DNA of 64,000 nt, from the NCBI GenBank assembly GCA_021173225.1, contig JAJOLK010000016.1, positions 21,034 through 85,033 on the forward strand, in the 5' to 3' direction. Source of the stretch: Phycisphaerales bacterium PN19_bin_20 (GTDB taxonomy: Bacteria > Planctomycetota > Phycisphaerae > Phycisphaerales > UBA1924). Below are positions 8,998 through 63,833 of this stretch, piece by piece. Within the stretch, counting starts at the first letter, position 1. Each line of letters begins with the position of its first letter. The notes beneath the pieces were generated by a model. That model searched no databases. It was not told the origin of the DNA and saw nothing but the letters and a program-made list of their open reading frames with translations. The position numbers and the translations under genes are program-made.

Positions 8998-10425
8998 ATG
9001 CACACCCCCCATGCTCTCTCCGCTACCGCCGTCCGCGCTACCCGAGCTAACAGCGCCCTCCAAACGCTCGCCGTCATCGCGCTCGTAACCCTCACCGGCA
9101 CCGCCGCCAGCGCGCAATACACCACCATCCTCATCTGCCGTGCCAGCGCCACAGGTTCAAGCACCTTCCGCCTGCCGATCAGCACCACCATCCTCGACGC
9201 AACCCCCGACGTCAATGACACCGGGCTCGTCACCGCCCGCGTCTCGACCGACTCCACCAACTTCCGACAGGGCATCTTCGTCGGCAACGAGACCGGCAGC
9301 GCAATTGTTTACAACGGTGGTAACGATGTAACACTCACCGACCCCACTATCAATAACAGCGGACTGATCGTCTACGGCGCCGCCCCGGCCGGTGGGCTCC
9401 GCGCGTACAACTCCGTCACCACCATCGACGGACCCCTGACCTTCGGCGTCCCCGGCACCTTCGGTTACGAGTCGCCCCGCCTCAGCAATACCGGCCGCAT
9501 CGCCTACCGCGGACGCGAGAACGGCCAGTTTGCCCAGCGCACCTTTGACCTGCACACCGTCAACCCCGCCGGCACCGTCCGCCTCGTGCGCGAGGTCGCC
9601 GCCGACGCCACCAGCCCCTTCAACTTCGTCTTCAACCCCGCCATCAGCCCGTTGGGTACCGCCGCCATCAAGCTCCAGCGCGGCAGCCTTATCACCGCTG
9701 ACGAAGTCTGGGTCTACCCCGCCAGCGGCTCCGCCCCCGTCCGCGTCGCCGCAGAAACCGGCGCCGCAAACCCCGGGCTCTTCACCGGCATCGACAACGG
9801 CGTCAGCGTCACCGACGACGGCCGCGTCGTCTTCCTCGGCACACTCGCCAGCACCGTCAGCCGCGGCGTCTACATCGTCACGCTCGCCGGTGACGTCCAA
9901 ACAATCGCGGTACAAAGCCCCAGCCAGACCATCGCGTTCTTCAACCCCGATATCAATAACAGAGGCCAGGTCGTCTTCCGCACACAAGCCGGCTCAACCC
10001 AGAGCATCATTGTAAGCAACGCCACCACCACCACCACCATCGCGTCCATCGGCCAGAGCATCACTACCGACCTCGGCCCCACCACCTTCACCGGCTTCCT
10101 CCAGAACCCACGCATCAACGAGCGCGGCGACGTGGTCTTCGGCGCCACCCTCGCCGCCGGCGGCCGTGGCATCTTCCTCGCCCGCGCGCCCCTGGCCTGC
10201 GGACCCAGCGACATCGCAAGCGCCGGCCCCACCGCCGGCCCCGACGGCGAGCTCACCGCCGACGATATTATCTTGTTCATCAACGCCTTCACCAGTGGCA
10301 ACCCCGCCATCGCTGATGTCGCAGGCCCCGGCCCCGTCGCAGGCCCCGACGGCGAGCTTACCGCCGACGACATCATCCTCTTCATCAACCGCTTCACTCA
10401 GAACAGCGTCGCTGGCTGCCCGTAG
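8998..10425 (+). CDS. Secreted NxxGxxAF-type repeat protein with C-terminal twin dockerin-like (GC-type) module
   Basis: Signal peptide ...LTGTAASAQ. Repeats NNSGLIVYGA, SNTGRIAYRG, TDDGRVVFLG, NNRGQVVFRT, NERGDVVFGA. C-terminus (10198-10425): CGPSDIASAGPTAGPDGELTADDIILFINAF...ADVAGPGPVAGPDGELTADDIILFINRFTQNSVAGCP. Confidence 0.85.
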   Translation: MHTPHALSATAVRATRANSALQTLAVIALVTLTGTAASAQYTTILICRASATGSSTFRLPISTTILDATPDVNDTGLVTARVSTDSTNFRQGIFVGNETGSAIVYNGGNDVTLTDPTINNSGLIVYGAAPAGGLRAYNSVTTIDGPLTFGVPGTFGYESPRLSNTGRIAYRGRENGQFAQRTFDLHTVNPAGTVRLVREVAADATSPFNFVFNPAISPLGTAAIKLQRGSLITADEVWVYPASGSAPVRVAAETGAANPGLFTGIDNGVSVTDDGRVVFLGTLASTVSRGVYIVTLAGDVQTIAVQSPSQTIAFFNPDINNRGQVVFRTQAGSTQSIIVSNATTTTTIASIGQSITTDLGPTTFTGFLQNPRINERGDVVFGATLAAGGRGIFLARAPLACGPSDIASAGPTAGPDGELTADDIILFINAFTSGNPAIADVAGPGPVAGPDGELTADDIILFINRFTQNSVAGCP

Positions 10426-11036
10426 CCCGCCGCGCCCTCATGCCGCAGCAGCCACGCCTTGCGCCATACCCCGCCGGCGTACCCCGCCAACGCGCCGTCA
10501 GCACCAGTTATTCGATGGCACGGCACCACCAGCGCCAGCGGGTTGCACGCGTTCGCCCGCGCCACCGCACGCACCGCGCTGGGCCGACCGATGTCGCGCG
10601 CGAGCGCCGCATACGACCGCGTGCCGCCCCACGACAGCGCCCGCAATGCCGCCCAGACCCGCCGCTGAAACTCCGTGCCGACCATCACCACCGGCACCTC
10701 AAAGCCGCCACTTTCCCCCGCGAAGTACCCGCGCAGCTCGCCCTCGATCTGCTCTAGCCACCGACTCGCCAACGAACCCTTCGCCCCACACCCAGAAGGC
10801 TTAGCAGCTTTCACGCGCCCTTGCAACCGCCCCCCCACCGCCTTCAGCCGCCCCCCCAGCGCCGCGAGCCGCCCATCAACCCCCGCGCGGCCCGCAAACT
10901 CCACCATGCACACGCCCGCGTCAGTCGCCCCCGCGATCACCTCGCCCAGCGGCGTCTGGATCGCGCACACAACAACCGCAGGCCGAACCTCGCAGGCCGG
11001 CTCGGGCAAACTCCGCACCACTGCGCCAGACAACAT
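10398..11036 (-). CDS. ogt: Methylated-DNA--protein-cysteine methyltransferase
   Basis: FQRRVWAALRALSWGGTRSYAALARDIGRPSAVRAVARANACNPLALVVPCHRI (PCHR active site). I chose the ATG at 11036; the track start at 11072 is a TTG. Confidence 0.85.
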   Translation of the reverse strand: MLSGAVVRSLPEPACEVRPAVVVCAIQTPLGEVIAGATDAGVCMVEFAGRAGVDGRLAALGGRLKAVGGRLQGRVKAAKPSGCGAKGSLASRWLEQIEGELRGYFAGESGGFEVPVVMVGTEFQRRVWAALRALSWGGTRSYAALARDIGRPSAVRAVARANACNPLALVVPCHRITGADGALAGYAGGVWRKAWLLRHEGAAGYGQPATLF

Positions 11037-11091
11037 CGCTCGCCCCCGCAAACCGCCACTCGCCGCCGCCAACCTCCTTCACCATCAAACG

Positions 11092-11113
11092 AAAAACGGC
11101 CCACAAAGGGCCG
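11092..11113 (-). terminator. Rho-independent terminator downstream of tRNA-Asp
   Basis: The minus strand reads CGGCCC-TTTGT-GGGCCG followed by TTTTT. Confidence 0.6.
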
Positions 11114-11121
11114 CTTTCAAG

Positions 11122-11195
<74 letters not shown>

Positions 11196-11425
11196 AATTC
11201 AGCCTTGCAGCGGCCTGATCTACCCCCAAGGCACCAACGCCTCGGCAAGCACATCACGCACGCAGCACGGGGGAAACTCGCTTGTCAACCCGGCCCCTCG
11301 CGCCCCCAAAGGACCGCGAAACGCCGAGCAGAAATCTAGTCGCGCCGGGGCCAAAGTCAAGAGCCATCCCTGACAACGCACCCAGCGTCAAGAAGCCCGC
11401 CGCCCGCCCGGCGGCCGCGCGCTAT

Positions 11426-11641
11426 TCACTTCACGAACGACAGGTTGCTCGTCCCACCCTGTGGCTTGCCGTGCAGACCAACCGGGCTCCCGTCCTTGCC
11501 GATGGTCCCGCCCGCCGTCGCCACAAACACGCACGCCACCGTCAGCGCCACCACCGCAAAGGCAAGGATGCCCGTGTACACGTCCATCGGTGCGGTTGTC
11601 CGGCGCAGGCCCCCCGGCATGTTCATTCCCATCTGGCTCAT
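11426..11641 (-). CDS. Small membrane protein (71 aa), hypothetical
   Basis: One clear TM segment (YTGILAFAVVALTVACVFVA). It lies 56 bp downstream of the coiled-coil gene on the same strand. Confidence 0.5.
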   Translation of the reverse strand: MSQMGMNMPGGLRRTTAPMDVYTGILAFAVVALTVACVFVATAGGTIGKDGSPVGLHGKPQGGTSNLSFVK

Positions 11642-11697
11642 GTGCTCTTCCTGTTCTGATCAACCAGCTTCTGGCCGACCGGGCTTCCGGACAACGC

Positions 11698-12579
11698 TCA
11701 GTTCACGCGCGAGAGCACAAGGTCGTTGGCCAACACGTCAACGCTCCGACCAAGACGATCGATCCGCCCGGCCGACTCGCTCGCATCCACCACCGTCAGC
11801 ACCAAAGACGCGACGAACTTCCCGTCACGCACGATGCTCAGACGCTGACCGACCTTCAAACCCGATGACCCGCCCACCGTGATGAACGCCAGGTCCTCGC
11901 CGTTCTCCGCACGTGTGATCGTCCGAACACGTCCAGTCACCAGCGGGCCCGCGGCCTCAAACCCCGAGGCCACCGCCGCCGCCGCGCCGCTCGCCGCCGA
12001 AGTGCCCGACGCCAGCGTCTGCCCCGCCGAACGCTCCATCGCGGTCCTGGTCTCGGCCAGCTGCTCCTGCAGGGCCCGCACGTTCTGCGTCAGCACCTGG
12101 TTCTGTGCCTCAAGCTCGCTCAGACGCTCAGTCATCTCGGCCTCGCGCTTCGCTGTCGAGATCGTCTTGTCACGCAGCGTGGTCACCTCGCCAGTCAGCG
12201 TGTCAACCAGCTTGGTGCTGGTCTGCACGACCTGATCCTTGCCCGCGGCCTGGTTGCGGAACCGCTCGGCGTTCAGCCGCGCATCACGCACCTCCGCCAG
12301 CAGCGTCTTGCGCTCCGCCTGCAAGCTGTTAATCTCCGTAGCCAGACGCGTCGCCTCAGACTGGGCCGCGTCCTGCGCCGCCTTCCGGGTTGAGATCTCG
12401 CCCTGGTTCTTGGTCCGCTCCAGGTCCAGCTCAGACTGCGAGGCCATCCGCATCGACCGCTCCGCGTCCACGCTGGCCCGGATCGTCGCCGCGTTGGCCG
12501 CAAAGGCCATCGACAGCGCCGCAAGGACCACCGCCAGCAAGGCGCCCAGAACGACCAGAATCTTGGTAAGCAGGTTCAC
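11698..12579 (-). CDS. Membrane-anchored coiled-coil protein, hypothetical
   Basis: GTG start with a strong GAGGAG 6 nt upstream. N-terminal TM ILVVLGALLAVVLAALSMAFA, about 190 aa of heptad-like Q/E/R/A-rich sequence, then a C-terminal beta-rich domain. Confidence 0.75.
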   Translation of the reverse strand: MNLLTKILVVLGALLAVVLAALSMAFAANAATIRASVDAERSMRMASQSELDLERTKNQGEISTRKAAQDAAQSEATRLATEINSLQAERKTLLAEVRDARLNAERFRNQAAGKDQVVQTSTKLVDTLTGEVTTLRDKTISTAKREAEMTERLSELEAQNQVLTQNVRALQEQLAETRTAMERSAGQTLASGTSAASGAAAAVASGFEAAGPLVTGRVRTITRAENGEDLAFITVGGSSGLKVGQRLSIVRDGKFVASLVLTVVDASESAGRIDRLGRSVDVLANDLVLSRVN

Positions 12580-12592
12580 TTGCGACTCCTCA

Positions 12593-12867: not shown

Positions 12868-14001
12868 CTACCTACCTCTGGCCGAAACCTCGGTGATCTT
12901 CAGCACCGCCGCCGCCGCCGAAATCTGCACCAGCGCCTGCGGATCGTCCAGCAGCGGGGCCAGCAGGGCCAGCACCTTGGTCTGCCCGCTCTCGCCCAGC
13001 ACCATCGCCGCCTGGGCCCGGTGCGCGGGGTTCTCAGCCGCCAGATGCTTCTGCGCCAGATCCAACGCCTGCTCCTCGCGCGGGCTAGAAACACTGTCCA
13101 TCCGCGCCAAGCTCGCCGCCGCCGCCAAACGCACCTCAATTGGCATCGGGCGCCCCTGCTCCCAGTTGTCCGCCAAAAGCGCCCTCAGGTTCGGACGGCT
13201 CGCCTCGTCACGCACCTGCCCCAGAATCTGCGCCGCCAGCGCGCACGCCTCCAAGTCCTCGGGCCGCGCCGGATACAACGCCGCACGCACCTCGCCAATC
13301 GCCTCGGTCTTCTCAAGCTTCACCAGCGCCTCGGCGATCTGCAGCCGCATCAGCCGGTCGCGCACCGCGTCCGCCCGCACCGCCGGCGCACCCGAGGCTT
13401 CCAGCAGCATCGGCACCGCCGAGGCGTTCCGCATCTCACCGAGCAAAAACGCCGCGTGCGCCCGCACGTGCATCGGCCCGTCGCTCAGCATCGACGCCAG
13501 CGGCGTCGGGTCCACCGTCACCCCCAGCCGCGACAGCGCATACAACGCCGACGCCCGCACCAAGGGCGAATCGTCGTTCAGCAGCGGACGCACGTGGTCC
13601 ACCAGCCGCGTCAGCTTCGCACGCCCGGCCACCAGCGCCGCCACGCTCCGAACACCCTGGCTGCTGCTGGTCATCCCCAGGCGCGCCGCACTCTCTAACC
13701 GCGCAGGCAACGGCAGCAGCGCCTCCAGCGCGTTAGCCTGCTGCTCAGGCTGCCCCTTCACCGCGTACTCAATCAGCAGCCCCGCCGCACGCTCACGAAG
13801 CTTCATCGCGCTCGTCAAGTCCGCACCCGCACCAGTACCCGAGCCAGACGCAGGCGGCGCAAACCCACGCTCCGCTGCCAGCACCACGCCCCCCACCCCC
13901 CACACACCACCACCACCATCACCAACCACCAGCACGCCGCCGGCGGCCACCGCCATCATCACAGCGGCGCGGACTCGGAAGCTCGGGCTCTGGCTAGGCA
14001 T
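12868..14001 (-). CDS. HEAT-repeat protein
   Basis: Repeated helical units of the form D.SP.VRA.A..AL..LG: DDSPLVRASALYALSRLG, GPMHVRAHAAFLLGEMR, ENPAHRAQAAMVLGESG, DPQALVQISAAAAVL. Confidence 0.75.
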   Translation of the reverse strand: MPSQSPSFRVRAAVMMAVAAGGVLVVGDGGGGVWGVGGVVLAAERGFAPPASGSGTGAGADLTSAMKLRERAAGLLIEYAVKGQPEQQANALEALLPLPARLESAARLGMTSSSQGVRSVAALVAGRAKLTRLVDHVRPLLNDDSPLVRASALYALSRLGVTVDPTPLASMLSDGPMHVRAHAAFLLGEMRNASAVPMLLEASGAPAVRADAVRDRLMRLQIAEALVKLEKTEAIGEVRAALYPARPEDLEACALAAQILGQVRDEASRPNLRALLADNWEQGRPMPIEVRLAAAASLARMDSVSSPREEQALDLAQKHLAAENPAHRAQAAMVLGESGQTKVLALLAPLLDDPQALVQISAAAAVLKITEVSARGR

Positions 14002-17315: not shown

Positions 17316-17330
17316 GCCGCCGCCTATACG

Positions 17331-17396
17331 CCTCGCGTGAGGCAGGATTCCATCCTGCCTTGCCTTTACCTCGCGTGGGGTGGATTCCATCCTGCC
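17331..17396 (+). repeat. Two copies of the REP-like family 1 hairpin element
   Basis: cctcgcgtgaGGCAGGATtccATCCTGCC (17341-17359) and tcgcgtggGGTGGATtccATCCTGCC (17371-17396). Confidence 0.8.
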
Positions 17397-17504
17397 ATCG
17401 GGCCAACCGCCCGCCCCTCATCGCTCTCGCTCGTCGCTCATCACTCATCGCTCACCATCATCTGCGATACCAACAAGTAACCCCGGCGCTACCTTCACTT
17501 CATC

Positions 17505-19202
17505 ATGAGCAACCCTGTCGGAGCGACGCCCAAAGGCCCCGCCGTCCTGATCATCCGCGACGGCTGGGGTGAGAACCCGCACCCCGCGCACGACGCCTTC
17601 AACGCCGCCCTGATCGCGCGGCGGCGCGGGCTCACGCCCTGCGACGACCAGCTCCGCGCACGCTGGCCCTGGACGTACGTCAAAACCTGCGGGCTTGACG
17701 TCGGCGTGCCCCCCGATCAGACCGGCAACAGCGAGGTCGGCCACCAGAACATCGGCGTTGGCCGCATCGTCGATCAAGAGGTCGTCCGTGTCTCCAAGGC
17801 GTGCGATTCGGGCGCGATCGCGCACAACCCCGCCATCGCCGGTGCCATCAGCGCCGCCAAAGGCGCGGGCAGAGCGCTGCACCTGATGGGCATCGCCAGC
17901 GACGCGGGCGTGCACGGGCTGCTCAGCCACCTTTACGCGCTGCTGCGGGCCGCCAAGGCCGCCGGGCAAGACAAGGTCTTCATTCACCTGTTTACCGACG
18001 GGCGCGACACGCCCCCGCAGTCAGGCCGCGGCTTCGTGCAAGAGGTCGAGCGCACGTGTGCGCAGCTCGGCGTGGGCCGCGTCGTCACCCTTTCGGGCCG
18101 CTACTACGCCATGGACCGCGACTTCCGCTGGGAGCGCGTCAAGCTCGCGTACGACGCGCTGACCACGCAGACCACCACATCGCGCTTCGCAACCGCCGAT
18201 GCCGCTATCGCCGCCTTCTACGCCGCGCCCACCAGCGCCAGCATGGGCGGTGATGAGTTCATCACCCCGCGCATCATCGCCGCCACTGACCAAGACGCGC
18301 AGGCCACGCGCATCACCACCGGCGACAGCGTGATCTTCTACAACTACCGCGGCGACCGCCCGCGCGAGCTGGCCATGGCCTTTGTCATGGCCGACCACGC
18401 CTGGGCAAACGTCAAGCCCAGCCCAGACTCAGGCCACCGCGGCTTTGACCGAGGCACACGCCCTCAAACCCACTTTGTCGCCATGACGGCCTGGAGCCAG
18501 GACCTCGCCCTGCTCATGCACGTCGCCTTCGACAAACCACTTAAACTCGAGCTGATCGCCGGCGAGTTGTTCGCAAACGCCGGGCTCACGCAGCTCCGCG
18601 TCGCTGAGACCGAGAAGTTCCCGCACGTCACGTTCTTCTTCAACGACTACCGCGAGGCGCCGTTCCCCGGCGAGTCGCGCGTCAACCCGCCCAGCCCGCG
18701 CGTCAGCACCTACGACCAGAAGCCCGAGATGTCCGCCCCCGCCGTGCGCGACGCCGTGCTCGCGGCACTCGCGCATCCCACGCCCCCGAGCGTGATTGTG
18801 GTCAACTTTGCCAACTGCGACATGGTCGGGCACACCGGCAAGCTCGAGCCCGCGGTGCAGGCCGTCGCCGTCACTGACGCGTGCGTCGCCGCGATCATCG
18901 ACGCAACCCTTGCCCTTGGCGGGCGGCTGATCGTCACCGCCGACCACGGCAACTGCGAGCAGATGTTCGACCCCATCTCGAACAGCCCGCACACCGCGCA
19001 CACCATGTACGACGTCCCGCTCTACGTCGTCAGCCCCCTGCACGCGCAGCGCACGCTCCGTGGCGACCAGGACCGCGCCGGGTTCCTCAGCCCCGCGGCC
19101 CGCGCCGCACGCGGCCGCCTGGCCGACGTGGTACCAACCTTGCTTGAGCTCATGAACATGCCCCAGCCCGCGGCCATGACCGGCAAGAGCCTGCTGGTGT
19201 GA
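17505..19202 (+). CDS. gpmI: 2,3-bisphosphoglycerate-independent phosphoglycerate mutase
   Basis: LIIRDGWG, NSEVGHQNIGVGRIV, FTDGRDTPP, SGRYYAMDRDFRWERV, ANCDMVGHTG, TADHGNCE. Confidence 0.92.
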   Translation: MSNPVGATPKGPAVLIIRDGWGENPHPAHDAFNAALIARRRGLTPCDDQLRARWPWTYVKTCGLDVGVPPDQTGNSEVGHQNIGVGRIVDQEVVRVSKACDSGAIAHNPAIAGAISAAKGAGRALHLMGIASDAGVHGLLSHLYALLRAAKAAGQDKVFIHLFTDGRDTPPQSGRGFVQEVERTCAQLGVGRVVTLSGRYYAMDRDFRWERVKLAYDALTTQTTTSRFATADAAIAAFYAAPTSASMGGDEFITPRIIAATDQDAQATRITTGDSVIFYNYRGDRPRELAMAFVMADHAWANVKPSPDSGHRGFDRGTRPQTHFVAMTAWSQDLALLMHVAFDKPLKLELIAGELFANAGLTQLRVAETEKFPHVTFFFNDYREAPFPGESRVNPPSPRVSTYDQKPEMSAPAVRDAVLAALAHPTPPSVIVVNFANCDMVGHTGKLEPAVQAVAVTDACVAAIIDATLALGGRLIVTADHGNCEQMFDPISNSPHTAHTMYDVPLYVVSPLHAQRTLRGDQDRAGFLSPAARAARGRLADVVPTLLELMNMPQPAAMTGKSLLV

Positions 19203-19345
19203 GCTGCAAACGCCGCGGCTGTGCGCTCAAACCTGTATCTGCGCCAGGATCGACGCCGAAGGGCTGGTGGTACCGGCGGGTGGGTCGTCGCGCGCGTGCG
19301 GCAGCCGCGGTCTAATGGCCTCTGGCGCGATCGGCGTTTTTACAA

Positions 19346-19376
19346 TGAAAAAGGGGCAGGCCTGAGCCCGCCCCTT
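19346..19376 (-). terminator. Rho-independent terminator of the 19413-21140 gene
   Basis: The minus strand reads AAGGGGC-GGGCTCAGGCCT-GCCCCTT followed by TTTTCATTGTAAAAA. Confidence 0.7.
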
Positions 19377-19412
19377 GGTGCAAGTTGTCGTCTCGCGGCG
19401 CGCCGGCTGGTC

Positions 19413-21140
19413 TTAGTTGCAGCCGGCGGTAAAGCGGTTGATGAAGAGGATGATGTCGTCGGCGGTCAACTCGCCGTCGCTGCCGGCCACGGGCCCGGGG
19501 CTCGCGATGTCGGCAAGGAGGTTGGAGGCAGTGAAGTAGCTGATGAACAAGATCACGTCGTCGGCGGTCAGCTCGCCGTCGGGGCAGGTCGTCGGCCCGG
19601 GGCCGGCGATATCGCTCTGGGTGCAGCGGGGCAGCAGGGCGAGGGTGGCGGCAACGTCTGCGGCGGTGACGGTGGTGCCCGAGTTCCACTGGCCGTTGGT
19701 GCCGTCGGTGGTGCTCATGCGAACCATGGCGAGGGTGGCGTTGAAGTCACGCCCCTGCCAGCGCCAGCCGTTGTAGGCGACGTCATCGGTGGTGGTGATG
19801 GTGTTGTTGTCCTCAAGGATGACGGCCATGTCGTCCAGCGAGGCACCGAGGCGCTGCTGGATGAGGCTGTAATCGGCGCAGTCAACGCGCCCGTCAAAGT
19901 TGAAGTCGCCGCGGACGAAGCGGAACTGGACGTTGTTGGCCCCGCCGTTAGCGGTGGCATCCACATCGTTGAACGCGCCGGGGGTGAGCTGGAAGCCGAC
20001 GAGGTTGATGCGGTCGAGCTTGAAGGTGCCGTTGGCGTCGAGCTGGCCGAGGGCGTTGTAGCGGTTGGTGCTGGTGGTGCTGGTGGGCCCGCCGATGACG
20101 GTGGCTGAATACTGCAGCAGGTCCGAGAGCAGGTCCTGCGTGTCGCCGTAGATGAACTCTTCGTCGGCCATGCGGGTGGGCTTCATCACGCCGCTAACCA
20201 GGACGTCGCCGCGGTTGGGGTTGACGCCGAAGTAGGCCATGCGTGAGACGGCGTCGGGGTTGAAGTTGGGGGTGTCGGAGAGCTCTTGCTGGCTTGAGCG
20301 GACGTATTCCTTGCCGCCGCCGTTGGACCAGGCGATGTCGTCAACCATCTGGTAGGGCTCGAGGCTTGATGGGCCCGGGACGCCGGGGGTGGCCAGACGC
20401 TCAGAGTTGACGGGCGTCTCGGCGGGGCGGTTGCCCGGCTGGTTGGAATACGGGGCGATGCCGTTCAGGTCGATGCGGCCGTTGAAGTTGACATCCTGAT
20501 TGATGTCCTTGCGCCAGGCGTAACGGATGCTGGCGGGGAAGCCGGACCCGCTGACGATGTTGGTACCCAGCACGCCGTCGTAGAGCGAACGGCCCTGCGC
20601 GTCTAGGGCGTGGAAGGGGCGCTTGCGGAGCAGGACGATGTTGGCGGAGCCGTCGTTTTTGATGCGGCCGGCGGCGTCAACGGTGGGGATGTGGGTGCCG
20701 TTGTAGGTGCCGCTGGTCGTGGCCTGGGCGAAGAACGGTGGCAGTAAAGAGGGGCGGTTGGCGGCTGTGCCGTTGGCGTTGTAGACCACGAGCAGTCCGT
20801 TGCTGCCGATGGTCAGCCCGTCAAGGCTCCAGGCCTCGTCGATCTCGGGGACCTCGTCGCCTGCGTCCCAGCCTGCGGGGAGCGGGCCGGGGATGTCGTT
20901 GCCGTTGGGATCACCGCCGCCGAAGACGCTGGCGATGGCGTAACCGGTGAGGTTCATGCCTGCGGGCCCGTAGAGCTCGATGTACTCCCAGCGGTCATCG
21001 GCGGCTGAGCCGCTGCCGGGCGGGTTAGAATAGACCTCGTTGATGACGACCTGGGCTGAGGCGGCGCTGGTGAGCGACGCGGCCAGGCCGGCGAGGGCCA
21101 GCAGTGCGGACGTGGCGAACGCGCGGGACAGAGTCTTCAT
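19413..21140 (-). CDS. Secreted lamin-tail-domain (LTD) protein with an internal dockerin/EF-hand-like loop and a C-terminal GC-type twin dockerin-like module
   Basis: Signal peptide MKTLSRAFATSALLALAGLAASLTSAASAQ (ATG 21140). LTD signature VVINEVYSNP...DRWEYIELYGPAGMNLTGY. GDFNFDGRVDCADYSLIQQRLG. C-terminus CTQSDIAGPGPTTCPDGELTADDVILFISYF...ADIASPGPVAGSDGELTADDIILFINRFTAGCN. Confidence 0.85.
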   Translation of the reverse strand: MKTLSRAFATSALLALAGLAASLTSAASAQVVINEVYSNPPGSGSAADDRWEYIELYGPAGMNLTGYAIASVFGGGDPNGNDIPGPLPAGWDAGDEVPEIDEAWSLDGLTIGSNGLLVVYNANGTAANRPSLLPPFFAQATTSGTYNGTHIPTVDAAGRIKNDGSANIVLLRKRPFHALDAQGRSLYDGVLGTNIVSGSGFPASIRYAWRKDINQDVNFNGRIDLNGIAPYSNQPGNRPAETPVNSERLATPGVPGPSSLEPYQMVDDIAWSNGGGKEYVRSSQQELSDTPNFNPDAVSRMAYFGVNPNRGDVLVSGVMKPTRMADEEFIYGDTQDLLSDLLQYSATVIGGPTSTTSTNRYNALGQLDANGTFKLDRINLVGFQLTPGAFNDVDATANGGANNVQFRFVRGDFNFDGRVDCADYSLIQQRLGASLDDMAVILEDNNTITTTDDVAYNGWRWQGRDFNATLAMVRMSTTDGTNGQWNSGTTVTAADVAATLALLPRCTQSDIAGPGPTTCPDGELTADDVILFISYFTASNLLADIASPGPVAGSDGELTADDIILFINRFTAGCN

Positions 21141-21265: not shown

Positions 21266-22273
21266 TTAGTCGTTGGGGCGCCAGAAGCGGCCGGTGGCGA
21301 GGACGCCGCCGAAGACCTTGCCCTCGATGGTGTCGTCGTACGCGGCGTTCGACGCGCGAGGTGCGCCGCTGGTCCAACCAAACTCCCCGTCGCGGTCGGT
21401 GTCGGCGAAAAGGTCAACGTGCCCGTCGGCGAAGAGGAAGTTGCCGTTGTACTTGTCGTGGTTTTTGTTGTTGGCACCGACGCCAGCGTTGGCCTTTGAA
21501 GACTTGCCGTGGGCGGGGCCGAAGTCTGAATACTTCTGGCGGGCCCAGGTGCCGTCGGAGACTTGTCCGGCGGGCCCGTCGGTGAGGTCTTTGGTATAGC
21601 GGTAGAAGTTGCCGTCGATCTCTTCTTGGGTGGTGCCGGCGGCGGCGTCGTCTTCGACGCGGCCGTCAGCAAAGAGAGGGACCTGGTTGGGGCTGGCACC
21701 GGTGATGGAGCGCTCGTTGAGTGCGCCGAGTGTGAAGCGGACGCGCTGGCCGTCGTTGGTGGAGCCCTTGGGGTTTTTGAAGCCCGTGTACGCGGTGTAC
21801 CAGGCCATGGTGTAGTTGGTGTTGAAGCCGCGCTTAAAGAGGTCGACTTGGTCGGTAGGGATGGAGAAGACCTTGGCTGGGCGGTCGGTCAGGCGGCCTG
21901 AGGTCATAGCCTGGGTGAGCTGCGCGGGGTTGGTGGGGCAGAGGAGCTGGCCGGGGTTGGTGATCTCGCCGTTGACCTGGTCGGCAAGCCAGCCGACGCG
22001 GTCGATAGGGCCCGAGCCGCTGTTGAGGCGGTTGTCAAAGCGGCCCGAGGAGAAGAAGCCCCTGGCCGACGCGGCGTAGGTCAGCATCCCAATGCCGACT
22101 TGGCGCAGGTTGCTCTGACACTTGCTGGTGCGCGCGGTGTCTCGTGCGGCGGCCAAGGTTGGCGAGAGGATGCTGACCAACAGAGCGATGATCGCGATGA
22201 CCACCAGCAGCTCGATGAGCGTGAAGGCGGCAACGGCGCGGCGAGCGTGGGTGGTTGGCATGGTGTGGGGCAT
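21266..22273 (-). CDS. Prepilin-type N-terminal cleavage/methylation domain protein, DUF1559 / H-X9-DG type
   Basis: [26 protein letters not shown]...[18 protein letters not shown], and near the C-terminus [15 protein letters not shown]. Confidence 0.85.
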
Positions 22274-26731: not shown

Positions 26732-26880
26732 GAGGGGTCTCGCTGGCTGAGCGATAACCATAACCCCCACGCGTCATCGGCGGCGCACCTGGCGCGGCTG
26801 GATGACTGAGTTGGGTGGAAGTGGCTTGGCGGGTGGCGTGGGGTGCGGGCGTGGACGCGGCGGGTGCCGATCTTGACCGC

Positions 26881-31099: not shown

Positions 31100-31215
31100 G
31101 GAGGGGTCGGGCCGTTGGCCCGATGGCCGATTGGAAACCGGCTTCTTAGAGGGCAAAGACATGGCAGGATGGAATCCTGCCCCACGCGAGGCGAAGAGAT
31201 GGCCGATTGGAAATC
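31100..31215 (-). repeat. REP-like family 1 element (reverse orientation) flanked by duplicated CCGATTGGAAAYCGG hairpins
   Basis: GGCAGGATggaATCCTGCCCCACGCGAG at 31163-31190. gatggccgattggaaa(c/t)cgg occurs at about 31112 and about 31198. The region lies downstream of the peroxiredoxin gene. Confidence 0.75.
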
Positions 31216-31265
31216 GGGCCCACCCGGCGGGTAGTAGGGGCAAAGAGGATGCGGGGCCGCGCGGG

Positions 31266-35659: not shown

Positions 35660-35743
35660 GAGCAGCGGGAGGCGACGAGCGGCGAGGGTCGTTCCTGCGG
35701 CCCGATTTTCGGTTGAAACCGGACCCGCGGAAGGAAAAGGCAT

Positions 35744-35771
35744 GGCAGGATGAAATCGTGCCCCACGCGAG
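35744..35771 (-). repeat. REP-like family 1 element, slightly degenerate copy
   Basis: GGCAGGATgaaATCGTGCCCCACGCGAG, preceded by the ccgattttcgg hairpin. It lies between convergent glgP and the metalloprotease gene. Confidence 0.7.
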
Positions 35772-35800
35772 GCACTAGGTGTGTGGAGCACCCGCCTGGC

Positions 35801-35836
35801 AAAACGCAAAGAGGGCGGGTTGCAGAACCCGCCCTT
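35801..35836 (-). terminator. Rho-independent terminator of the metalloprotease gene
   Basis: The minus strand reads GGGCGGGTT-CTGC-AACCCGCCC followed by TCTTTGCGTTTT. Confidence 0.75.
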
Positions 35837-35857
35837 CGAGAGCCAGAGGTAGACGCT

Positions 35858-52445: not shown

Positions 52446-53546
52446 ATGAAGCTCCTAAACCGCACATCTCGGCGCCCCTCTTGGCGTACGTTTTGGCGTT
52501 CAACGCTGTTGGCTGGCGCCTTGGGCGTGGTCACCCCGGCTATGTTCGGCACGCTGGGCGCGTGTGCGGGGGCAGCTTCCGCTGCAAAGCCCGCCGCCAG
52601 CACGGCCAGCACTGATTTGAGCATCAAGCCCGGCCCGTACGACCAGGCCGCCAGCGAGCTGCAAACCCTTCTTGCTAGCCAAGGCGCTGTGCAAAGCACA
52701 GACGCCGCAAGCACACCAAAGGCCCCGGTGCTGGCATCACGCACACCCGCGCCTAAGTCCAAGGCGATCGCCCAAACTAAGCCCGAGTCCAGGCCCGAGC
52801 CCAAGCCCGAGTCCAAAGCTCGCCCGCCGCGCGTCTACGAGGCCCCGCCGTCGCCCGCAGCGCCACTCTCACTTCTGGCAGATCCACTCTCATCAGACCC
52901 ACTCCGGGCAGAGCTTGACGCGGACGCCGCGCCCGTCATGACGACGGCCAGCGCCACTGCGACGACGGCTGAAAACGAAGTTGCACCCGCGCCAATTGCC
53001 GCACAAGCACCCGTGTCCACGCAGCACACGGCAAACACGCCTCAACTCGCCGCCGCCGCTGCGCCCGCCATGGCTCTCGCAAGCGAGCAGACCGGGCTGC
53101 ACATCAGCGCCCTGCACGCCTGCACGCGCATCGAGGGCTTCGGGCGCTTCACCCGCGCCGACGTCTCGCGCCTCATCGCCGGCCGCGCCACGCCGCTGCT
53201 GATCTACGTCGAGCTTGACGGCTTCGCGCACCGGACCGCCGCCGGCCTCGCGCCCCCGCCGGGTGCCGCGGGCCTCCCTGACGACGGCAGCACGCAGTGG
53301 ATCGTCGAGGTCGGCCAAGAGCTGGCGGTCTTTAGTGCCGCCGGGCGGCTGCAGTTCAAGGTCCCAGAGCAGATCGCCCGAGACGAGGCCAAGCGCCGCC
53401 GCCGCGACCATTACCTGGTTCAGCGCGTCACCATTCCCGCATCGCTTCCGCCGGGCGGGTACTCGATGGTCGTGACCGCCCGTGACATCGCCACCGACGC
53501 GACCGACCAGGCTCGCCTGTCGTTCACGATCATCCCAGCGCGCTGA
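52446..53546 (+). CDS. Hypothetical secreted protein
   Basis: N-terminal basic stretch plus a hydrophobic signal (RRPSWRTFWRSTLLAGALGVV...GACAGAASA). A Pro/Ala/Ser/Lys-rich linker is followed by a C-terminal domain of about 150 aa. No family recognised. Confidence 0.6.
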   Translation: MKLLNRTSRRPSWRTFWRSTLLAGALGVVTPAMFGTLGACAGAASAAKPAASTASTDLSIKPGPYDQAASELQTLLASQGAVQSTDAASTPKAPVLASRTPAPKSKAIAQTKPESRPEPKPESKARPPRVYEAPPSPAAPLSLLADPLSSDPLRAELDADAAPVMTTASATATTAENEVAPAPIAAQAPVSTQHTANTPQLAAAAAPAMALASEQTGLHISALHACTRIEGFGRFTRADVSRLIAGRATPLLIYVELDGFAHRTAAGLAPPPGAAGLPDDGSTQWIVEVGQELAVFSAAGRLQFKVPEQIARDEAKRRRRDHYLVQRVTIPASLPPGGYSMVVTARDIATDATDQARLSFTIIPAR

Positions 53547-57026: not shown

Positions 57027-58151
57027 TCAGCAGCCCGCCGTGAAGCGCCCGATGAACAGGATGATGTCGTCGGCGGTGAACTCACCCTCGCCGCCTACGA
57101 CCCCGCCCGGGCCGGCAATGTCGGCACGCGCGTCGCGCGCAATGAACCAGCCGATGAAGAGGATGATGTCGTCGGCGGTCAGCTCGCCGTCGGGCAGCGG
57201 CAGGCCGCCGGGGCCGGCGATGTCTGACAGAGTGCAACTCGAGCGGCTCTGGTGCTGCAGGTAGGTTTCCGCAGCGAAGCTCAAGCCTACCGGAAGCACG
57301 ATGGTCCACTGGTACCCGTAGCTGAGGTCATCGACGGTGGTCGTGACGGGCGGGAAGTTGTTCAGCAGGTTCTCAGCGATGTTGTTGGTCATCGTGTCCT
57401 GAATGGTGGTGTTGAAACCAGGGATGGCCGAGGCGCGGACGGCGAAGCGGTCGGCGTTGCCGCGGGCCGCGAAGACGCTGGGGTTCGGCACCCCGTTCTG
57501 CCTGAAGAGCAGGCCGGTGGGGATGACGCTGAAGCGGTCGTCGCCGAAGTTGGGCTGGCAGTCCAGGTCGCCCATCCAGTAGAGGTTCAAGGTGATGTCC
57601 ACCGTGCCGATGTTGCTGACGATGTTGCGGATGACCGTCGCGGGGCCCAGGGCGGTGGTCAGGATCTCGAAGCGCTGATCGCTGCGGAACTTGTACCCGC
57701 CAGCGACGTTGCGCTGGACCTCATAGACGTACGCGCAGTTGGCCGTCGTGCCCAGGTTGGTCCCGACGCTGCCCGTGCGCGTGCAGGTGATGCCCGCGGC
57801 AGTGGAGGTTGCGGCGTTAATGAACGCGAACTCACGGTTTTCGCCCTGAACCCGGAAGAACCAGCCCAGCTGCCACGCGACGTCGCCGACGCTGGCCGGA
57901 TCGCCCGGCGATGCGACGAGCTTGGGGCTGAAGGAGTAGTTTGTCCGCAGCGCGCCGCCCGCAGTCAAGGAGCCGACGCCAGCGGGAGTAATGGTCCCTG
58001 CGGGGGGCGTGTAGCGGAACGTCCCGTTGTTGGCCAGCAGGCCACCGGGGGTGATGAAATACGTCTGGGCCGAGGCGGTGCCGGCAGCCAGAACAAGTGC
58101 GGACAGGCCAAAGGCGATCGGGGCGGTGCGGGCGGATGAAGCAGTGCGCAT
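57027..58151 (-). CDS. Secreted protein of unknown function with a GC-type twin dockerin-like C-terminus
   Basis: Signal peptide MRTASSARTAPIAFGLSALVLAAGTASAQ. C-terminus CTLSDIAGPGGLPLPDGELTADDIILFIGWF...ADIAGPGGVVGGEGEFTADDIILFIGRFTAGC. Confidence 0.85.
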   Translation of the reverse strand: MRTASSARTAPIAFGLSALVLAAGTASAQTYFITPGGLLANNGTFRYTPPAGTITPAGVGSLTAGGALRTNYSFSPKLVASPGDPASVGDVAWQLGWFFRVQGENREFAFINAATSTAAGITCTRTGSVGTNLGTTANCAYVYEVQRNVAGGYKFRSDQRFEILTTALGPATVIRNIVSNIGTVDITLNLYWMGDLDCQPNFGDDRFSVIPTGLLFRQNGVPNPSVFAARGNADRFAVRASAIPGFNTTIQDTMTNNIAENLLNNFPPVTTTVDDLSYGYQWTIVLPVGLSFAAETYLQHQSRSSCTLSDIAGPGGLPLPDGELTADDIILFIGWFIARDARADIAGPGGVVGGEGEFTADDIILFIGRFTAGC

Positions 58152-60002: not shown

Positions 60003-60344
60003 ATGCATCATCTTCGTTTGGTTGACAGTCAGGATGCCGAGGTGCTCGAGGGCGTGGGCCCATCGGGGGCCGCGGGCGATAAGGCGGTTGCGGGTCCGCA
60101 GGCGGTAGTGCCTCTGGCGACGCTGCCGTTCCCGACCGCGGCGGTGCACGTGCTGAACCGCGAGCGGATCGGGCGTTTGACGACGCCGGTGCAGAACGCC
60201 GAGGCCTCGCTCTCACAGCTTGAGGCGGGGATCAACAAGCACCTTGAGCGCGCGCAGCAGCTGGTCAATCAGCTGCACGAGGACGTTGAGAACTTCAAGT
60301 TCCCAGCGCCAGATAACACGCCGCCGAGCGGGCGCGCGGCCTGA
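60003..60344 (+). CDS. Hypothetical protein (113 aa)
   Basis: ATG at 60003 (MHHLRLVDSQ...). The C-terminal helical segment is SLSQLEAGINKHLERAQQLVNQLHEDVENFKFP. No family recognised. Confidence 0.45.
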   Translation: MHHLRLVDSQDAEVLEGVGPSGAAGDKAVAGPQAVVPLATLPFPTAAVHVLNRERIGRLTTPVQNAEASLSQLEAGINKHLERAQQLVNQLHEDVENFKFPAPDNTPPSGRAA

Positions 60345-60417
60345 GGGCGGCTGGCGCCGAGACCAGCGGCGCGGCGAGCTTGCTGCCGGCGAGTTGGCCC
60401 TGGGGTCCGGGGTGCTC

Positions 60418-62502
60418 ATGGTCGGGCGGGTACGCTTGCCCATGCGCCTTGTTACTCGCAAGATCTGGCGTGCGTTCCCGGAGCTTGACCGGTTCGACGA
60501 CAAGCACGCGTCGGCGTTTGTCCGCGCGGCGGGGCGCTCGCTGTGGGCCCTGACTGTGCGCTGGGTGGCGACGCTGGGCACCGGCCTGGTACTGATCGTG
60601 CCGGCGCTGGCGCTGGCGATCTCGTTGGGTGGGCGGGGTGGGACGGGCATCACGCTGGCGTGGGTGCTGGGCTTCTGCGTCTTGAGCCTTGTGGCCTTCG
60701 GCTCAGCGATGCTGGTTCGTGACACGCTGCTGCGTAGGCGTGTGCGGCGGGTGATTGCCCTGCGCGGGACGTGCATCAACTGCCGGTACGTGCTGCTGGG
60801 CATGCCGGTGGGCGCTGATCTCAAGATTCACTGCCCTGAGTGCGGCTTTGTGACCACCGCCGACCCGGCAATGAACGAGCTGGTCATGGACGCTGGCGGG
60901 CAGGTGACATATCGCCCGGCGCAGGGAGCCGACGACCCGGTTCGCGCGGCGCGGCGTGCGCGACGCCGGCTTCGGTGGCGGCGCGGCCTGCTGTCTGGCG
61001 TGGTTGGCCTAGTCATGGTGGCAGGCGGCACTTTGCTGACGATCTATTTGCAGATGCTCATCGACGCGCGTGCGGCACGCGCCGCGCGAAACTTCGACAA
61101 GGACGCGGCGGCGCTGATGGCCAGCGCGCAGCCAGCAGGCAGTGAGGCGGCGCCCAACGGCTGGCCGGTGTTCTTGCAGGTCATCTATGACGTGCGCGAG
61201 CGCGAGAGTATGGAGACGGCAGCGCTGGCCAAGAGTGTGCAGTTCGCGGGTGTGCGCGACAACGAGCTCTATCTTGACTACAGCGTGCTGTTCGCGCCGG
61301 AACTGCGCGACTACTCGCAGACTTCTGAGTTTCGCGTGGAGGAGCGCCGAGCGGCCGACGACGCGCGCCGGAAGCTTGCGATGGCGATGATTGAGCGTCT
61401 GCGGACCACGGGTGAGCTGGCGAAGCTGGACCAGCTACGGACAATCACGCGGGTGGAGGGCGACATGGTGGTGCCGCCGGGCGGGAACGCCATCAACGTG
61501 ATGCTGCCGCACTTGGCCGCGGCGCGGAACGTCGCCCGGTTGAGCGCGGCGCGGATGGGGCTGGCGTTGGCGGCGAAGGACAAGGCCGAGTACCTCGCGG
61601 CGCTGGATCAAAACCTAGCGATGGCGCGGATCCTTGAAACACAGCCGACGCTGATTTCGTTGCTGGTAGCGTTTGCGATCGACAGCCTGGGGGCCGGGCG
61701 CGTCCGCGCCCACCTGATGTCGATACCCGACGAGGGGTGGATCAAGGATGTACAGGGCGTGCTGGAGGCGCGTCGGCCGCGCGTGGGTCTTTCGCACGCG
61801 CTGGATGGTGATCGGCTGATATCGCGTGACGTGGTTGAGTGGTTCTTTAGTGATACCACGCGCGTGCGGACGGCGATGCTGACTGGCAAAGTCTTAGGGG
61901 TGAACAGCAGGAACAACCCTCTGCTGGCCCGCATCGGGCGGTACCGCGAGAACATCGAGGCGGTCGACGCGTATGTCGCTCGGGGCAAGGCCGAGACGGA
62001 GAAGTGGCCCTTTGAGCGGGCCAAGCCGATCGCGAGCGATGGGCAGGAAGAGCCGCCGTCGCTGATGCTGATGAAGATGCTTGCCGGGGCGTACGGCAGC
62101 GCGGCGCGGTCACGCGATCAACGGGAAACCGAGCTGCGCGGGACGCGCGTGATGCTGACGCTAGAGCGGTTCAAGCGTCGGACCGGCGCGTACCCCGCGG
62201 GGCTTATCGAGCTTGGCACGGCTGACGGGCTGGTTGTCGGTGATCTGATCGATCCGTATAGCGGACTGGCGTTTGGGTATCGAAGGCTTGACAGGACAGC
62301 GGCAGAGGCGAAGGTGACGCGGGGCCCGAGTGGCCGTAGTTTGCCGCGGTTGCTAAGCGATGTGGAGGCGACGCGATATGACTACCTGCTGTGGTCTGTG
62401 GGTGCTGACAGAACAGACAACGCCGGCACGCATGCCACGAGCTTTGGCGCGTTGCGTACGGACGGCGCGAACTTCGACCATGTGATCAACAACGCCGAGT
62501 AG
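60418..62502 (+). CDS. Membrane protein with a zinc-ribbon loop (CINCRYVLLG...CPECG) and a large C-terminal helical domain
   Basis: Two TM segments, then CINCRYVLLGMPVGADLKIHCPECGFVT, an Arg-rich stretch (RRARRRLRWRR) and another TM, followed by a domain of about 480 aa. ATG chosen at 60418. Confidence 0.7.
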   Translation: MVGRVRLPMRLVTRKIWRAFPELDRFDDKHASAFVRAAGRSLWALTVRWVATLGTGLVLIVPALALAISLGGRGGTGITLAWVLGFCVLSLVAFGSAMLVRDTLLRRRVRRVIALRGTCINCRYVLLGMPVGADLKIHCPECGFVTTADPAMNELVMDAGGQVTYRPAQGADDPVRAARRARRRLRWRRGLLSGVVGLVMVAGGTLLTIYLQMLIDARAARAARNFDKDAAALMASAQPAGSEAAPNGWPVFLQVIYDVRERESMETAALAKSVQFAGVRDNELYLDYSVLFAPELRDYSQTSEFRVEERRAADDARRKLAMAMIERLRTTGELAKLDQLRTITRVEGDMVVPPGGNAINVMLPHLAAARNVARLSAARMGLALAAKDKAEYLAALDQNLAMARILETQPTLISLLVAFAIDSLGAGRVRAHLMSIPDEGWIKDVQGVLEARRPRVGLSHALDGDRLISRDVVEWFFSDTTRVRTAMLTGKVLGVNSRNNPLLARIGRYRENIEAVDAYVARGKAETEKWPFERAKPIASDGQEEPPSLMLMKMLAGAYGSAARSRDQRETELRGTRVMLTLERFKRRTGAYPAGLIELGTADGLVVGDLIDPYSGLAFGYRRLDRTAAEAKVTRGPSGRSLPRLLSDVEATRYDYLLWSVGADRTDNAGTHATSFGALRTDGANFDHVINNAE

Positions 62503-62594
62503 CGGCGGCGGTTGATGCTGTGGTTTGGGGCGCAAGTTGCTGCTGCGTTAGACGCCGCCCACAACGCCTGGCTGGCGGAGCGGGGGTTTGGCGA

Positions 62595-63833
62595 TCAGCA
62601 TCCGGCGATGAACGCGGTGATGAAGACGATGATGTCGTCGGCGGTCAGCTCGCCGTCGGGCCCGACGACCTGGCCCGGGCCGGCAACATCAGCCAGCGCG
62701 GCATTTCCGCTGACAAACGCGCCGACGAAGACGATGATGTCGTCGGCGGTGTACTCGCGGTCAGCACCTGGCACTTGGCCGGCACCGGCGACGTCACCGA
62801 GGCACAGGCGCAGACGGAGCTTGAGCGAGGCGGGGATGGCGAGTGGTGCCTCGGGCGTGCCGCGCGGTGCTTCCTTCGTGAAGAAACGCGGGTAGACGAC
62901 AGGGCCGGCACCGAAGGCGGTGGCGGTGTGCAGGCTGCTGACGAGCAGATTGAGGCGGCCGTTGGTGGCCGCGTCGGCGGCGAGGGCGGCGCGAAGGTAA
63001 GCATCAAAGCCGCGGTTGGGCACGGCGAGCGCGGGGCCGCTGACGCTGAAGGCGAAGCGACCGAGGTTCTGGACGGCGGCACCCGGGGCGAGGGCGAGGC
63101 CTGCGGAATCAAAGGCCTGCCCTACGGCGAGCGGCGCGGGCTCGAAGCTCGTCGGCACGCCCGCGATCAGGCCGGTGACGTTGTTGGAAACGTCGCGGGG
63201 GCTGGCGGCGGGCCCGCCAAAGTCGACGGGGAACGCGTTGCGGACGTTGTACGTCCCGCTGGGCGCATAGGGCGTGTTCTCGGCGTAGGTCGCCGCGGTG
63301 AAGGCGTTGCGGTAGGCGACGGCGTAGAGCTCAATGGGGCGGCCGGCGTCTACGTCAAGCGTGCGGTTGGGGTCGGCGGGCTGGGTCTGGCTGCCGGGGA
63401 AGAGGTAGGTGGTGACGGGGTCCTGCGTGGCGTCGAAGGTGATGGCCTCTGAGGGCGCGGCGACGTTGACAAAGGCCGAAAGCTCGACGAGTTCGGCGCG
63501 GTAACGGCTGAGCGGGAACGGGCCGGTGAGGGTGCCGGTGAGGTCAAAGCCGACGAGGAACTCGCTGTCGCGGTCGTCGAAGACGGTGCCGGTGTCGTTG
63601 GCCCAGAGGGTTGTAAAGGTTGGCGCGCCGGTGGAGCGTCCGCTGAAGTCGCCAAAGGGGTAGACCCAGCGATCGATGGTTGGCGTGGTGATGGTGCGCT
63701 CGATCACGGTGGGCACCGCAGCGAGGGCGGCTGGCGCGCCTGTGGCGGCGAAGAGGGCGGCAACGAGGGTGGAAAAGTTCAAGGCGGAGCGTCTGGAAAC
63801 GGGAGCGCTCGCCGAGGCAATGGGCGTGGTCAT
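62595..63833 (-). CDS. Secreted protein of unknown function with a GC-type twin dockerin-like C-terminus
   Basis: Signal peptide MTTPIASASAPVSRRSALNFSTLVAALFAATGAPAALA. C-terminus CLGDVAGAGQVPGADREYTADDIIVFVGAF...ADVAGPGQVVGPDGELTADDIIVFITAFIAGC. Confidence 0.85.
   Translation of the reverse strand: MTTPIASASAPVSRRSALNFSTLVAALFAATGAPAALAAVPTVIERTITTPTIDRWVYPFGDFSGRSTGAPTFTTLWANDTGTVFDDRDSEFLVGFDLTGTLTGPFPLSRYRAELVELSAFVNVAAPSEAITFDATQDPVTTYLFPGSQTQPADPNRTLDVDAGRPIELYAVAYRNAFTAATYAENTPYAPSGTYNVRNAFPVDFGGPAASPRDVSNNVTGLIAGVPTSFEPAPLAVGQAFDSAGLALAPGAAVQNLGRFAFSVSGPALAVPNRGFDAYLRAALAADAATNGRLNLLVSSLHTATAFGAGPVVYPRFFTKEAPRGTPEAPLAIPASLKLRLRLCLGDVAGAGQVPGADREYTADDIIVFVGAFVSGNAALADVAGPGQVVGPDGELTADDIIVFITAFIAGC

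Follow-up and report, generated by a model that had tools for sequence, protein, structure and literature searches.

Seven secreted proteins of a Phycisphaerales genome share a C-terminal GC-type dockerin module that may serve as a docking tag

Within a single stretch of a planctomycete genome, seven secreted proteins with unrelated bodies all end in the same twin-repeat module, which raises the question of what this shared C-terminus does for such different proteins. The stretch (hereafter the window) is 64 kb long, with a G+C content of 65–70%, and covers positions 21,034 to 85,033 of contig JAJOLK010000016.1 of Phycisphaerales bacterium PN19_bin_20. An initial annotation of the window had proposed a dockerin- or EF-hand-like anchoring system. 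By examining the seven open reading frames (ORFs), their homologs and the predicted fold of the module, we found that all seven proteins belong to the NCBIfam family NF041540, and we propose, with a probability of roughly 55%, that the module is a divergent dockerin-like, disulfide-clasped docking tag used by Phycisphaerales, with a shared putative receptor. The family name was already known; new here are the probable clasp, the loop insertion, the interchange in the anchor slot and the genome-specific signature. Planctomycetota surfaces are poorly understood, including the way in which their many secreted proteins are retained on the cell. A tag–receptor pair, if true, would explain surface display in Phycisphaerales and would carry the cohesin–dockerin principle beyond polysaccharide degradation in Firmicutes, and a small, disulfide-stabilised and possibly orthogonal docking pair could serve protein engineering.

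The twin-repeat module and its family

All seven modules match NF041540, 'GC-type dockerin domain-anchored protein', with 50.2–62.5 bits (cutoff 29) over the full 67-position profile, and the family is therefore already named. The model of this kind that the initial annotation had named is thus real, and the seven proteins are members of the known family, with nothing that separates them from it. NF041540 is a named model only, with no receptor, structure or function on record, in line with the annotation's view on receptor and mechanism, and a full-text literature search found no paper for 'GC-type dockerin'. To delimit the module in the window, a profile hidden Markov model (HMM) was built from the seven modules and searched, with filters off, against all stop-to-stop segments in six frames, which returned exactly seven matches (E 5e-37 to 7e-42), the next best having E 0.55. 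The seven ORFs translate as claimed, each ending in a twin-repeat module of 70–76 amino acids (aa) made of two repeats of 34–35 residues, and a repeat finder recovered 14 repeat units at the DNA level, with a spacing of 102–105 nucleotides (nt) inside each gene and an identity of 60–85%.

The seven carriers are numbered here along the window. Carrier 1 (8998–10425, + strand; 475 aa) consists of a signal peptide, a body of NxxGxxAF/MXAN_5453-like 'choice-of-anchor' repeats resembling a MYXO-CTERM-anchored family, and a module of 76 aa ending in GCP (10195–10422, +); it scores 62.5 bits on NF041540 and also matches TIGR05002 and NF045523. Carrier 2 (19413–21140, − strand; 575 aa) has a signal peptide, a lamin-tail-like domain (below the Pfam cutoff), a canonical dockerin-like half-site and a module of 71 aa ending in GCN (19416–19628, −), which is the one modelled by AlphaFold. 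Carriers 3, 4 and 5 follow one another on the − strand. Carrier 3 (35858–38125; 755 aa) carries a signal peptide, an M12B reprolysin-like metalloprotease domain, Big_9 and PA14 domains, and a module of 70 aa ending in TGC (35861–36070, −). Carrier 4 (38422–40077; 551 aa) carries a signal peptide, an endonuclease/exonuclease/phosphatase domain, a choice-of-anchor D Ig-like domain and a module of 70 aa ending in ISC (38425–38634, −). Carrier 5 (40196–42535; 779 aa) has a signal peptide, a body without family match and a module of 71 aa ending in NQQ (40199–40411, −), in which both Cys residues are absent. Carrier 6 (57027–58151, −; 374 aa) joins a signal peptide and a beta-rich body without family match to a module of 70 aa ending in AGC (57030–57239, −); its body is known from a low-confidence model, the AlphaFold prediction of the full-length protein (6-sequence alignment, predicted local distance difference test (pLDDT) 42.9) being unusable. 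Carrier 7 (62595–63833, −; 412 aa) comprises a Tat-like signal, a body without family match and a module of 71 aa (62598–62810, −) with the first Cys displaced by one, ending in AGC.

Two further statements of the initial annotation on these proteins hold. BLASTP among the bodies gave no cross-match at E 1e-3, so they are unrelated as described, and all seven N-termini are signal-like when judged by eye (basic n-region, hydrophobic core and A-x-A-type end). In carrier 7, SRRSALNF precedes the hydrophobic core, which is Tat-like, the other six being Sec-like by the same inspection. Longer upstream starts are possible for carriers 2, 3 and 7 in the ORF listing; with the starts used, the products of carriers 3 and 7 are identical to sequences in public collections.

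The consensus originally written for the module stands as an overall twin-repeat pattern and calls for minor corrections, since the terminal residues and the C-x3-D, G-P-G and D-G-E elements vary. The exact G-C-stop ending is present only in carriers 3, 6 and 7; carrier 7 has C-x2-D instead of C-x3-D and D-R-E instead of D-G-E; and G-P-G is replaced by S-A-G in carrier 1 and by G-A-G in carrier 7. The Cys counts were exact, with 69 residues inclusive from the first to the last Cys in carriers 2, 3, 4, 6 and 7, a span of 74 in carrier 1 and a Cys-free module in carrier 5. Invariant or near-invariant in both repeats are D6/D40, D17/D51, G18/G52, T21/T55, D23/D57 and D24/D58.

Beyond the window, an exhaustive HMM search over 1.84 billion cluster representatives (clusters at 50% identity) gave a family of 1,725 clusters at E≤1e-3, of which 545 reach E≤1e-10, and all 90 representative carriers scanned pass NF041540. 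Among the 140 top representatives, the module lies no more than two residues from the C-terminus in 132, the protein ends in GC in 105, and 4 continue for 18–110 residues beyond the module; repeats recur every 34 residues in 112 and every 35 in 18, and a Cys–Cys spacing of 68 is the most frequent. Close homologs of the carriers come from metagenome-assembled genomes (MAGs) labelled Phycisphaerales, Phycisphaeraceae or Phycisphaerae. Two small representatives, P0035 (51 aa) and P0012 (72 aa), are split gene calls of larger carriers. The cargo of the 90 carriers consists mostly of Rax2/DUF5122 beta-propellers, DUF7453, Ig, PA14, Kelch, NxxGxxAF, HAF and delta-60 repeats, with few enzymes (reprolysins and one alpha-amylase-type protein). 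This cargo differs from a cellulosome-like set of carbohydrate-active enzymes, and it leaves the earlier suggestion of an assembly of exoenzymes weak.

Predicted fold and likeness to dockerins

The module of carrier 2 was modelled by AlphaFold2 from a 38-sequence alignment with high confidence (pLDDT 89.2, predicted template-modelling score 0.78). In the model, each repeat forms a loop with a small beta-bridge followed by a helix of 12–13 residues (model residues 31–42 and 65–77), and a three-residue helix (46–48) lies between the repeats. In full-length hhalign alignments to dockerins, D6, D17, G18, L20, T21 and D24 fall on loop positions 1, 5, 6, 8, 9 and 12, with a seven-residue A-G-P-G-x-x-x insertion after loop position 2. 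These residues, together with A22, are conserved at 84–100% in both repeats, and the predicted helix begins at A22, that is, at position 10, as in EF-hand-type loops.

The link of the GC-type module to dockerins rests on a transitive match through the tail of one ortholog, P0221, which is a 31%-identical homolog of the cargo of carrier 1 and ends in a canonical-looking dockerin, GDIDGDGDVDFADLN...DLDGDGDVDFADLN. On one side, NF041540 matches this tail with 27.1 bits (E 4e-6), slightly under the cutoff of 29; on the other, the tail aligns over both repeats with the dockerin of C. thermocellum Xyn10B (E 7e-6). The canonical dockerin sequences used for comparison, including that of Xyn10B, were validated as Pfam Dockerin_1, Xyn10B at 68.9 bits. 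A plausible reading of the module is that of a divergent dockerin whose loops are each extended by a hairpin. Calcium binding we infer from the aligned loop residues, and docking by analogy with dockerins.

Canonical repeats were also seen near the module itself. In carrier 2, a canonical dockerin/EF-hand-like repeat, GDFNFDGRVDCADYSLIQQRLG, lies at 19824–19910 (−), corresponding to aa 411–439, with some 70 residues between it and the GC-type module downstream, and matches Pfam Dockerin_1 with E 0.0016–0.036, below the cutoff. In the representative P0061, several canonical D-x-N/D-x-D-G repeats directly adjoin the GC-type module.

The two Cys residues that bracket the module were examined in 190 non-redundant modules, of which 171 contain the full pair and 8 lack it entirely; the N-terminal Cys stands alone in 3 and the C-terminal one in 8, and 3 of these last 8 have an alternative internal Cys that could pair. 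Likewise, in an alignment of short homologs, modules lacking the first Cys also lack the last. This covariation suggests an intramolecular disulfide joining the module ends, that is, a clasp that would tie both ends together in an oxidising compartment. In dockerins, an N/C-terminal 'intramolecular clasp' is reported to stabilise the Ca2+-bound form (PMC3821032), and by analogy the two Cys would make the same clasp covalent. A competing explanation, that the terminal Cys serves intermolecular chemistry (disulfide-linked multimers, or lipid or other covalent attachment) and that the dockerin-like look is incidental, draws on the fact that in most members this Cys is the last residue or adjoins it, including the 105 of the 140 top representatives that end in GC, and is nevertheless very improbable, as the last Cys covaries with, and is lost together with, a Cys 68 residues upstream, which points to an intramolecular pair, and as carrier 5 and other Cys-free members keep the remaining module intact.

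Among known systems, the GC-type modules most resemble type I dockerins (PF00404) in likely function, though neither Pfam models nor Foldseek recognise them as such. Both are tandem duplications of about 70 aa with an acidic loop followed by a helix (predicted in the GC-type module), a spacing of about 34 residues and a usually C-terminal position on secreted proteins; in both the N- and C-termini are clasped or probably so; and the dockerins within one organism share recognition residues, as GC-type modules of one genome share signature residues. The differences are that the loops of the GC-type module carry the seven-residue insertion and lack the position-3 ligand, that its clasp would be a Cys pair, that its cargo is not carbohydrate-active enzymes, and that type I dockerin hosts are Gram-positive anaerobes, whereas the host of the GC-type module is a lineage of Planctomycetota, which has an outer membrane. 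In the literature, the idea that comes nearest is the 'planctosome', a hypothetical structure of freshwater Phycisphaerae (Nemodlikiaceae; Andrei et al. 2019, PMC6461901), proposed for the same class as a non-cellulosomal cohesin–dockerin assembly in which M12B reprolysin-like peptidases and a protein with a lamin-tail domain take part; the window similarly holds one lamin-tail-like carrier and one M12B carrier. Unlike the GC-type system, the planctosome, itself hypothetical, was built on canonical cohesin and dockerin hits (dbCAN, InterProScan), which miss the GC-type module.

Anchor slot, genome signatures and rival explanations

Homologs of the cargo of carrier 1 carry different elements at their C-termini. 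In P0217–P0220, from other Phycisphaerales MAGs and 52–57% identical to this cargo, the last ~70 residues hold a different Cys-flanked twin repeat, C-x-D-I-D-F-N-N-N-x-V-F-P-E-D-Q-D-V-I-D-F-F-x-V-L-A-G-x-x-C, which occurs twice, each copy with its own flanking Cys pair. These repeats have an EF-hand-like D-x-D-x-N...E loop and replace the GC-type module; no NCBIfam model matches the tail and no Pfam match is on record for it, and it appears to be an unnamed anchor module. Another homolog, P0222, ends in a PEP-CTERM signal (TIGR02595, PF07589), and P0223 is without any C-terminal tail. Several cargo domains, moreover, match NCBIfam 'choice-of-anchor' families or resemble a MYXO-CTERM-anchored family. 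Since homologous cargo carries a dockerin, a PEP-CTERM signal or another twin repeat in the same place, the GC-type module occupies the position of known cell-surface anchoring elements.

On homologous cargo, the module thus takes the C-terminal slot that PEP-CTERM/exosortase and MYXO-CTERM signals also take (P0222; NF045523; choice-of-anchor families). Such signals combine a short motif with a transmembrane helix and a basic tail and are processed by a dedicated enzyme; the GC-type module, in contrast, is predicted to be a folded soluble domain, and the module sequences have no hydrophobic span, no Arg/Lys tail and no NCBIfam match of this kind. As a separate observation, ORF 29661–30407 (−; 248 aa) has a signal peptide and a PEP-CTERM-like tail, IPAPSAAGALALVGLVATRRRR-stop, and would be a second anchor type in the genome; NCBIfam did not confirm this PEP-CTERM reading.

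Residues that vary between modules were found to follow the genome. The MAG scan was made with narrow peptide patterns and yielded three MAGs only; it is not a taxonomic census. In the window, 14 of the 14 repeats have the helix tail [IV]-x-x-F-[TIVS], and the residue after the G-P-G turn is mostly non-Gln. Two related MAGs combine L-N-x-F-F with the turn GPGQ in 19 of 20 repeats, one divergent module (L015) excepted, and in the Prado162 MAG the helix tail is mostly L-[GS]-x-[YF]-F and the turn is G-x-N-Q in 15 of 16. Orthologs of the carrier 3 protease, with bodies 46–68% identical, are of the FT type in P0059, the GQ/FF type in P0131 and the NQ/YF type in P0177, each carrying the signature of its own genome group. 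The signature residues therefore track the genome and not the cargo, as co-evolution of all tags of a genome with a single common partner would lead one to expect. Dockerins of one species co-evolve with their cohesins, and the signatures of the GC-type modules fit the same pattern. Recent gene conversion was rejected as the source of the common signature, because the DNA of the repeats is too diverged (60–85% identical); slow concerted evolution may be an alternative source.

Taken as a docking tag, the module could work as follows. Carriers would be exported through their N-terminal signals, Sec in six and Tat-like in one as read from the sequence. Outside the cytoplasm, the C-terminal 70 residues are predicted, with high confidence, to fold into two hairpin-loop-helix units with a short linker helix. 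Each loop would be a 12-residue dockerin/EF-hand-type calcium loop with the seven-residue A-G-P-G-x-x-x hairpin between positions 2 and 3, in which positions 1, 5 and 12 are still Asp, position 6 Gly, position 8 hydrophobic and position 9 Thr, whereas the position-3 ligand has been lost; this step is drawn from profile alignments of marginal significance and from where the helix is predicted to begin. A disulfide from the Cys just before repeat 1 to the terminal Gly-Cys would tie the ends, as the covariation suggests. Finally, the folded tag would bind one shared receptor per genome non-covalently, by which unrelated cargo would be kept on the cell surface or gathered into one assembly; here the argument is by analogy, from the interchange with known anchors and from the genome-specific signature residues. 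A wider form of the proposal is tentative and, taken as a whole, doubtful: a Phycisphaerales-specific, cellulosome-independent surface display, in which dozens of secreted proteins per genome would dock via a disulfide-clasped, hairpin-extended calcium-loop module onto a putative receptor that is not a recognisable cohesin, with a genome-specific recognition code (turn positions 11–12 and helix positions 29–33 of each repeat) co-evolving with that receptor.

Several results weigh against reading the module as a dockerin-like docking tag. The dockerin/EF-hand claim of the initial annotation is supported in part by the tandem duplication of a loop-plus-amphipathic-helix unit in the AlphaFold model and is not recovered by family and structure searches: the comparison with Pfam that it had suggested came out negative, the Dockerin_1 and EF-hand models giving nothing against the seven modules at E≤10, and the model has no helix ahead of either loop, where EF-hands have one. 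Foldseek against the PDB returned no dockerin and one noise match (E 5.4), although Foldseek is weak on such small domains. The hhalign alignments to canonical dockerins, colinear across both repeats, are marginal (P 0.014–0.17), and they place Gly where the position-3 calcium ligand should be, so that this ligand is missing. On our narrow HMM, canonical dockerins score just 0–12 bits. The top PDB match of the seven-module profile is a dockerin chain, 4uyq_B (E 0.55), which vanishes with the broader A2 profile; with a single module as the query, the PDB sequence search gave TAL-effector and PDZ matches that were rejected as spurious, arising from the common 34-residue repeat period. The co-occurrence of the two Cys (odds ratio 57, Fisher p 5e-8) comes from related sequences, and its p-value is indicative only. 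As for a receptor, type I dockerins bind cohesin, and for the GC-type module the genes of the 64-kb window include neither a cohesin nor a sortase-like enzyme nor any other candidate for a partner, as the initial annotation had stated; none lies beside the carriers in ~200 kb of related loci, where the neighbours are housekeeping genes, and carriers on long contigs have no recurring partner gene nearby.

The same slot and the same missing partner could be explained in other ways. The module might serve secretion or sorting, comparable in function to the C-terminal domain of the type IX secretion system, with which an envelope machine would move the cargo across the outer membrane and may cleave it or attach it covalently. 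The nearly obligatory position at the extreme C-terminus (132 of 140 within two residues), the conserved last residues (Gly-Cys), the swap on homologous cargo with PEP-CTERM, which is a processed sorting signal, and the dispersal of carriers over the genome, as is seen for sorting-signal proteins, would all fit. We consider this unlikely, given that the module lacks the transmembrane helix and basic tail of PEP-CTERM and MYXO-CTERM signals and is a confidently predicted, probably disulfide-closed folded domain, that there are Cys-free variants and variants extended by 76–110 residues at the C-terminus, that the window and the sampled loci hold no sortase-like or dedicated gene, and that surface signatures specific to a genome would rather be expected of a binding pair.

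Alternatively, the module could be a calcium-dependent anchor to a non-protein envelope component such as exopolysaccharide, lipopolysaccharide or peptidoglycan, in which case no cohesin-like receptor would exist. This would account for the failure to find a cohesin or a recurring neighbour in the window and the ~200 kb of related loci, a search that covered a tiny share of each genome, and it would suit the adhesin-like cargo and the many invariant acidic residues, which could bridge Ca2+ to anionic polymers. It too seems improbable, since the signature positions are hydrophobic helix residues (I/L and F/T/Y), a better fit to a protein–protein interface, and since dockerins, the nearest relatives by transitive homology, bind proteins. 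The docking-tag reading is the one we retain.

Carrier neighbourhoods and other features of the window

The window is dense in carriers, as the initial annotation had stressed, with 0.11 modules per kb compared with roughly 0.02 extra modules per kb in related loci (22 modules in 18 hit-centred loci, ~200 kb, of other genomes). Its local density includes three consecutive carriers at 35.8–42.5 kb, and such clustering recurs elsewhere, as indicated by L021, a 20-kb JGI contig (3300037311) with three GC-type carriers inside 12.4 kb (1–2043, 9812–10153 and 10051–12390). As a rough extrapolation, these densities suggest tens of carriers per genome.

One ORF was considered as a receptor candidate and rejected. 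ORF 52446–53546 (+) resembles a lipoprotein in its LGAC lipobox, from which a long linker rich in Ala, Pro and Ser separates a C-terminal beta-looking domain of ~150 aa; its G+C at third codon positions (0.78) is borderline for coding, and a word-index search found no homologs, so that it is an orphan or not a gene. Prepilin-type N-terminal methylation motifs, AFTL[IV]ELLVV (DUF1559/type II pseudopilin-like), adjoin carriers 2 and 7, in genes at 21266–22273 (−) and 63960–63998 (+), the second of which leaves the window at its end; a DUF1559 prepilin-like gene is typical of Planctomycetota. The rest of the window consists of ordinary housekeeping genes, namely FlhF/FlhG, iPGM, NuoC/D, ornithine decarboxylase, sigma-54, RecR, ClpC-like, leucyl aminopeptidase, dTMP kinase and PlsY.

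The GC skew flips sharply at ~19000–19400, from about −0.2/−0.3 to +0.2/+0.25 regardless of gene strand, where carrier 2 and the iPGM gene converge and leave a gap. A switch related to replication could explain this, as could the breakpoint of a rearrangement; DnaA-box-like sites near the flip occur at chance-level counts. Short intergenic repeats resembling repetitive extragenic palindromes or miniature inverted-repeat transposable elements are located at 345–486, 17319–17417, 31104–31230 and 35715–35848. Their core is a hairpin, GGCAGGAT(N)ATCCTGCC, and the repeat at 345–486 consists of two 71-nt tandem copies.

Two large membrane proteins without family match, at 7433–8722 (−) and 60220–62502 (+), have in common a zinc-ribbon-like motif of four Cys (CPKCWYLL...CPECGVWTT and CINCRYVL...CPECGFVTT) and are probably paralogs; an inverted repeat at the DNA level lies at 8504–8535/60827–60858. 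A protein with a CpeT/CpcT (DUF1001) domain is encoded at 25523–26770 (−), and one with HEAT repeats, similar to phycobilisome lyase/NblB families, at 12868–14001 (−); the genome otherwise looks like that of a non-photosynthetic planctomycete. Finally, rpoN (sigma-54; 46080–47804, −) contains tandem 18-nt and 15-nt repeats at 46879–46968 and 47139–47223.

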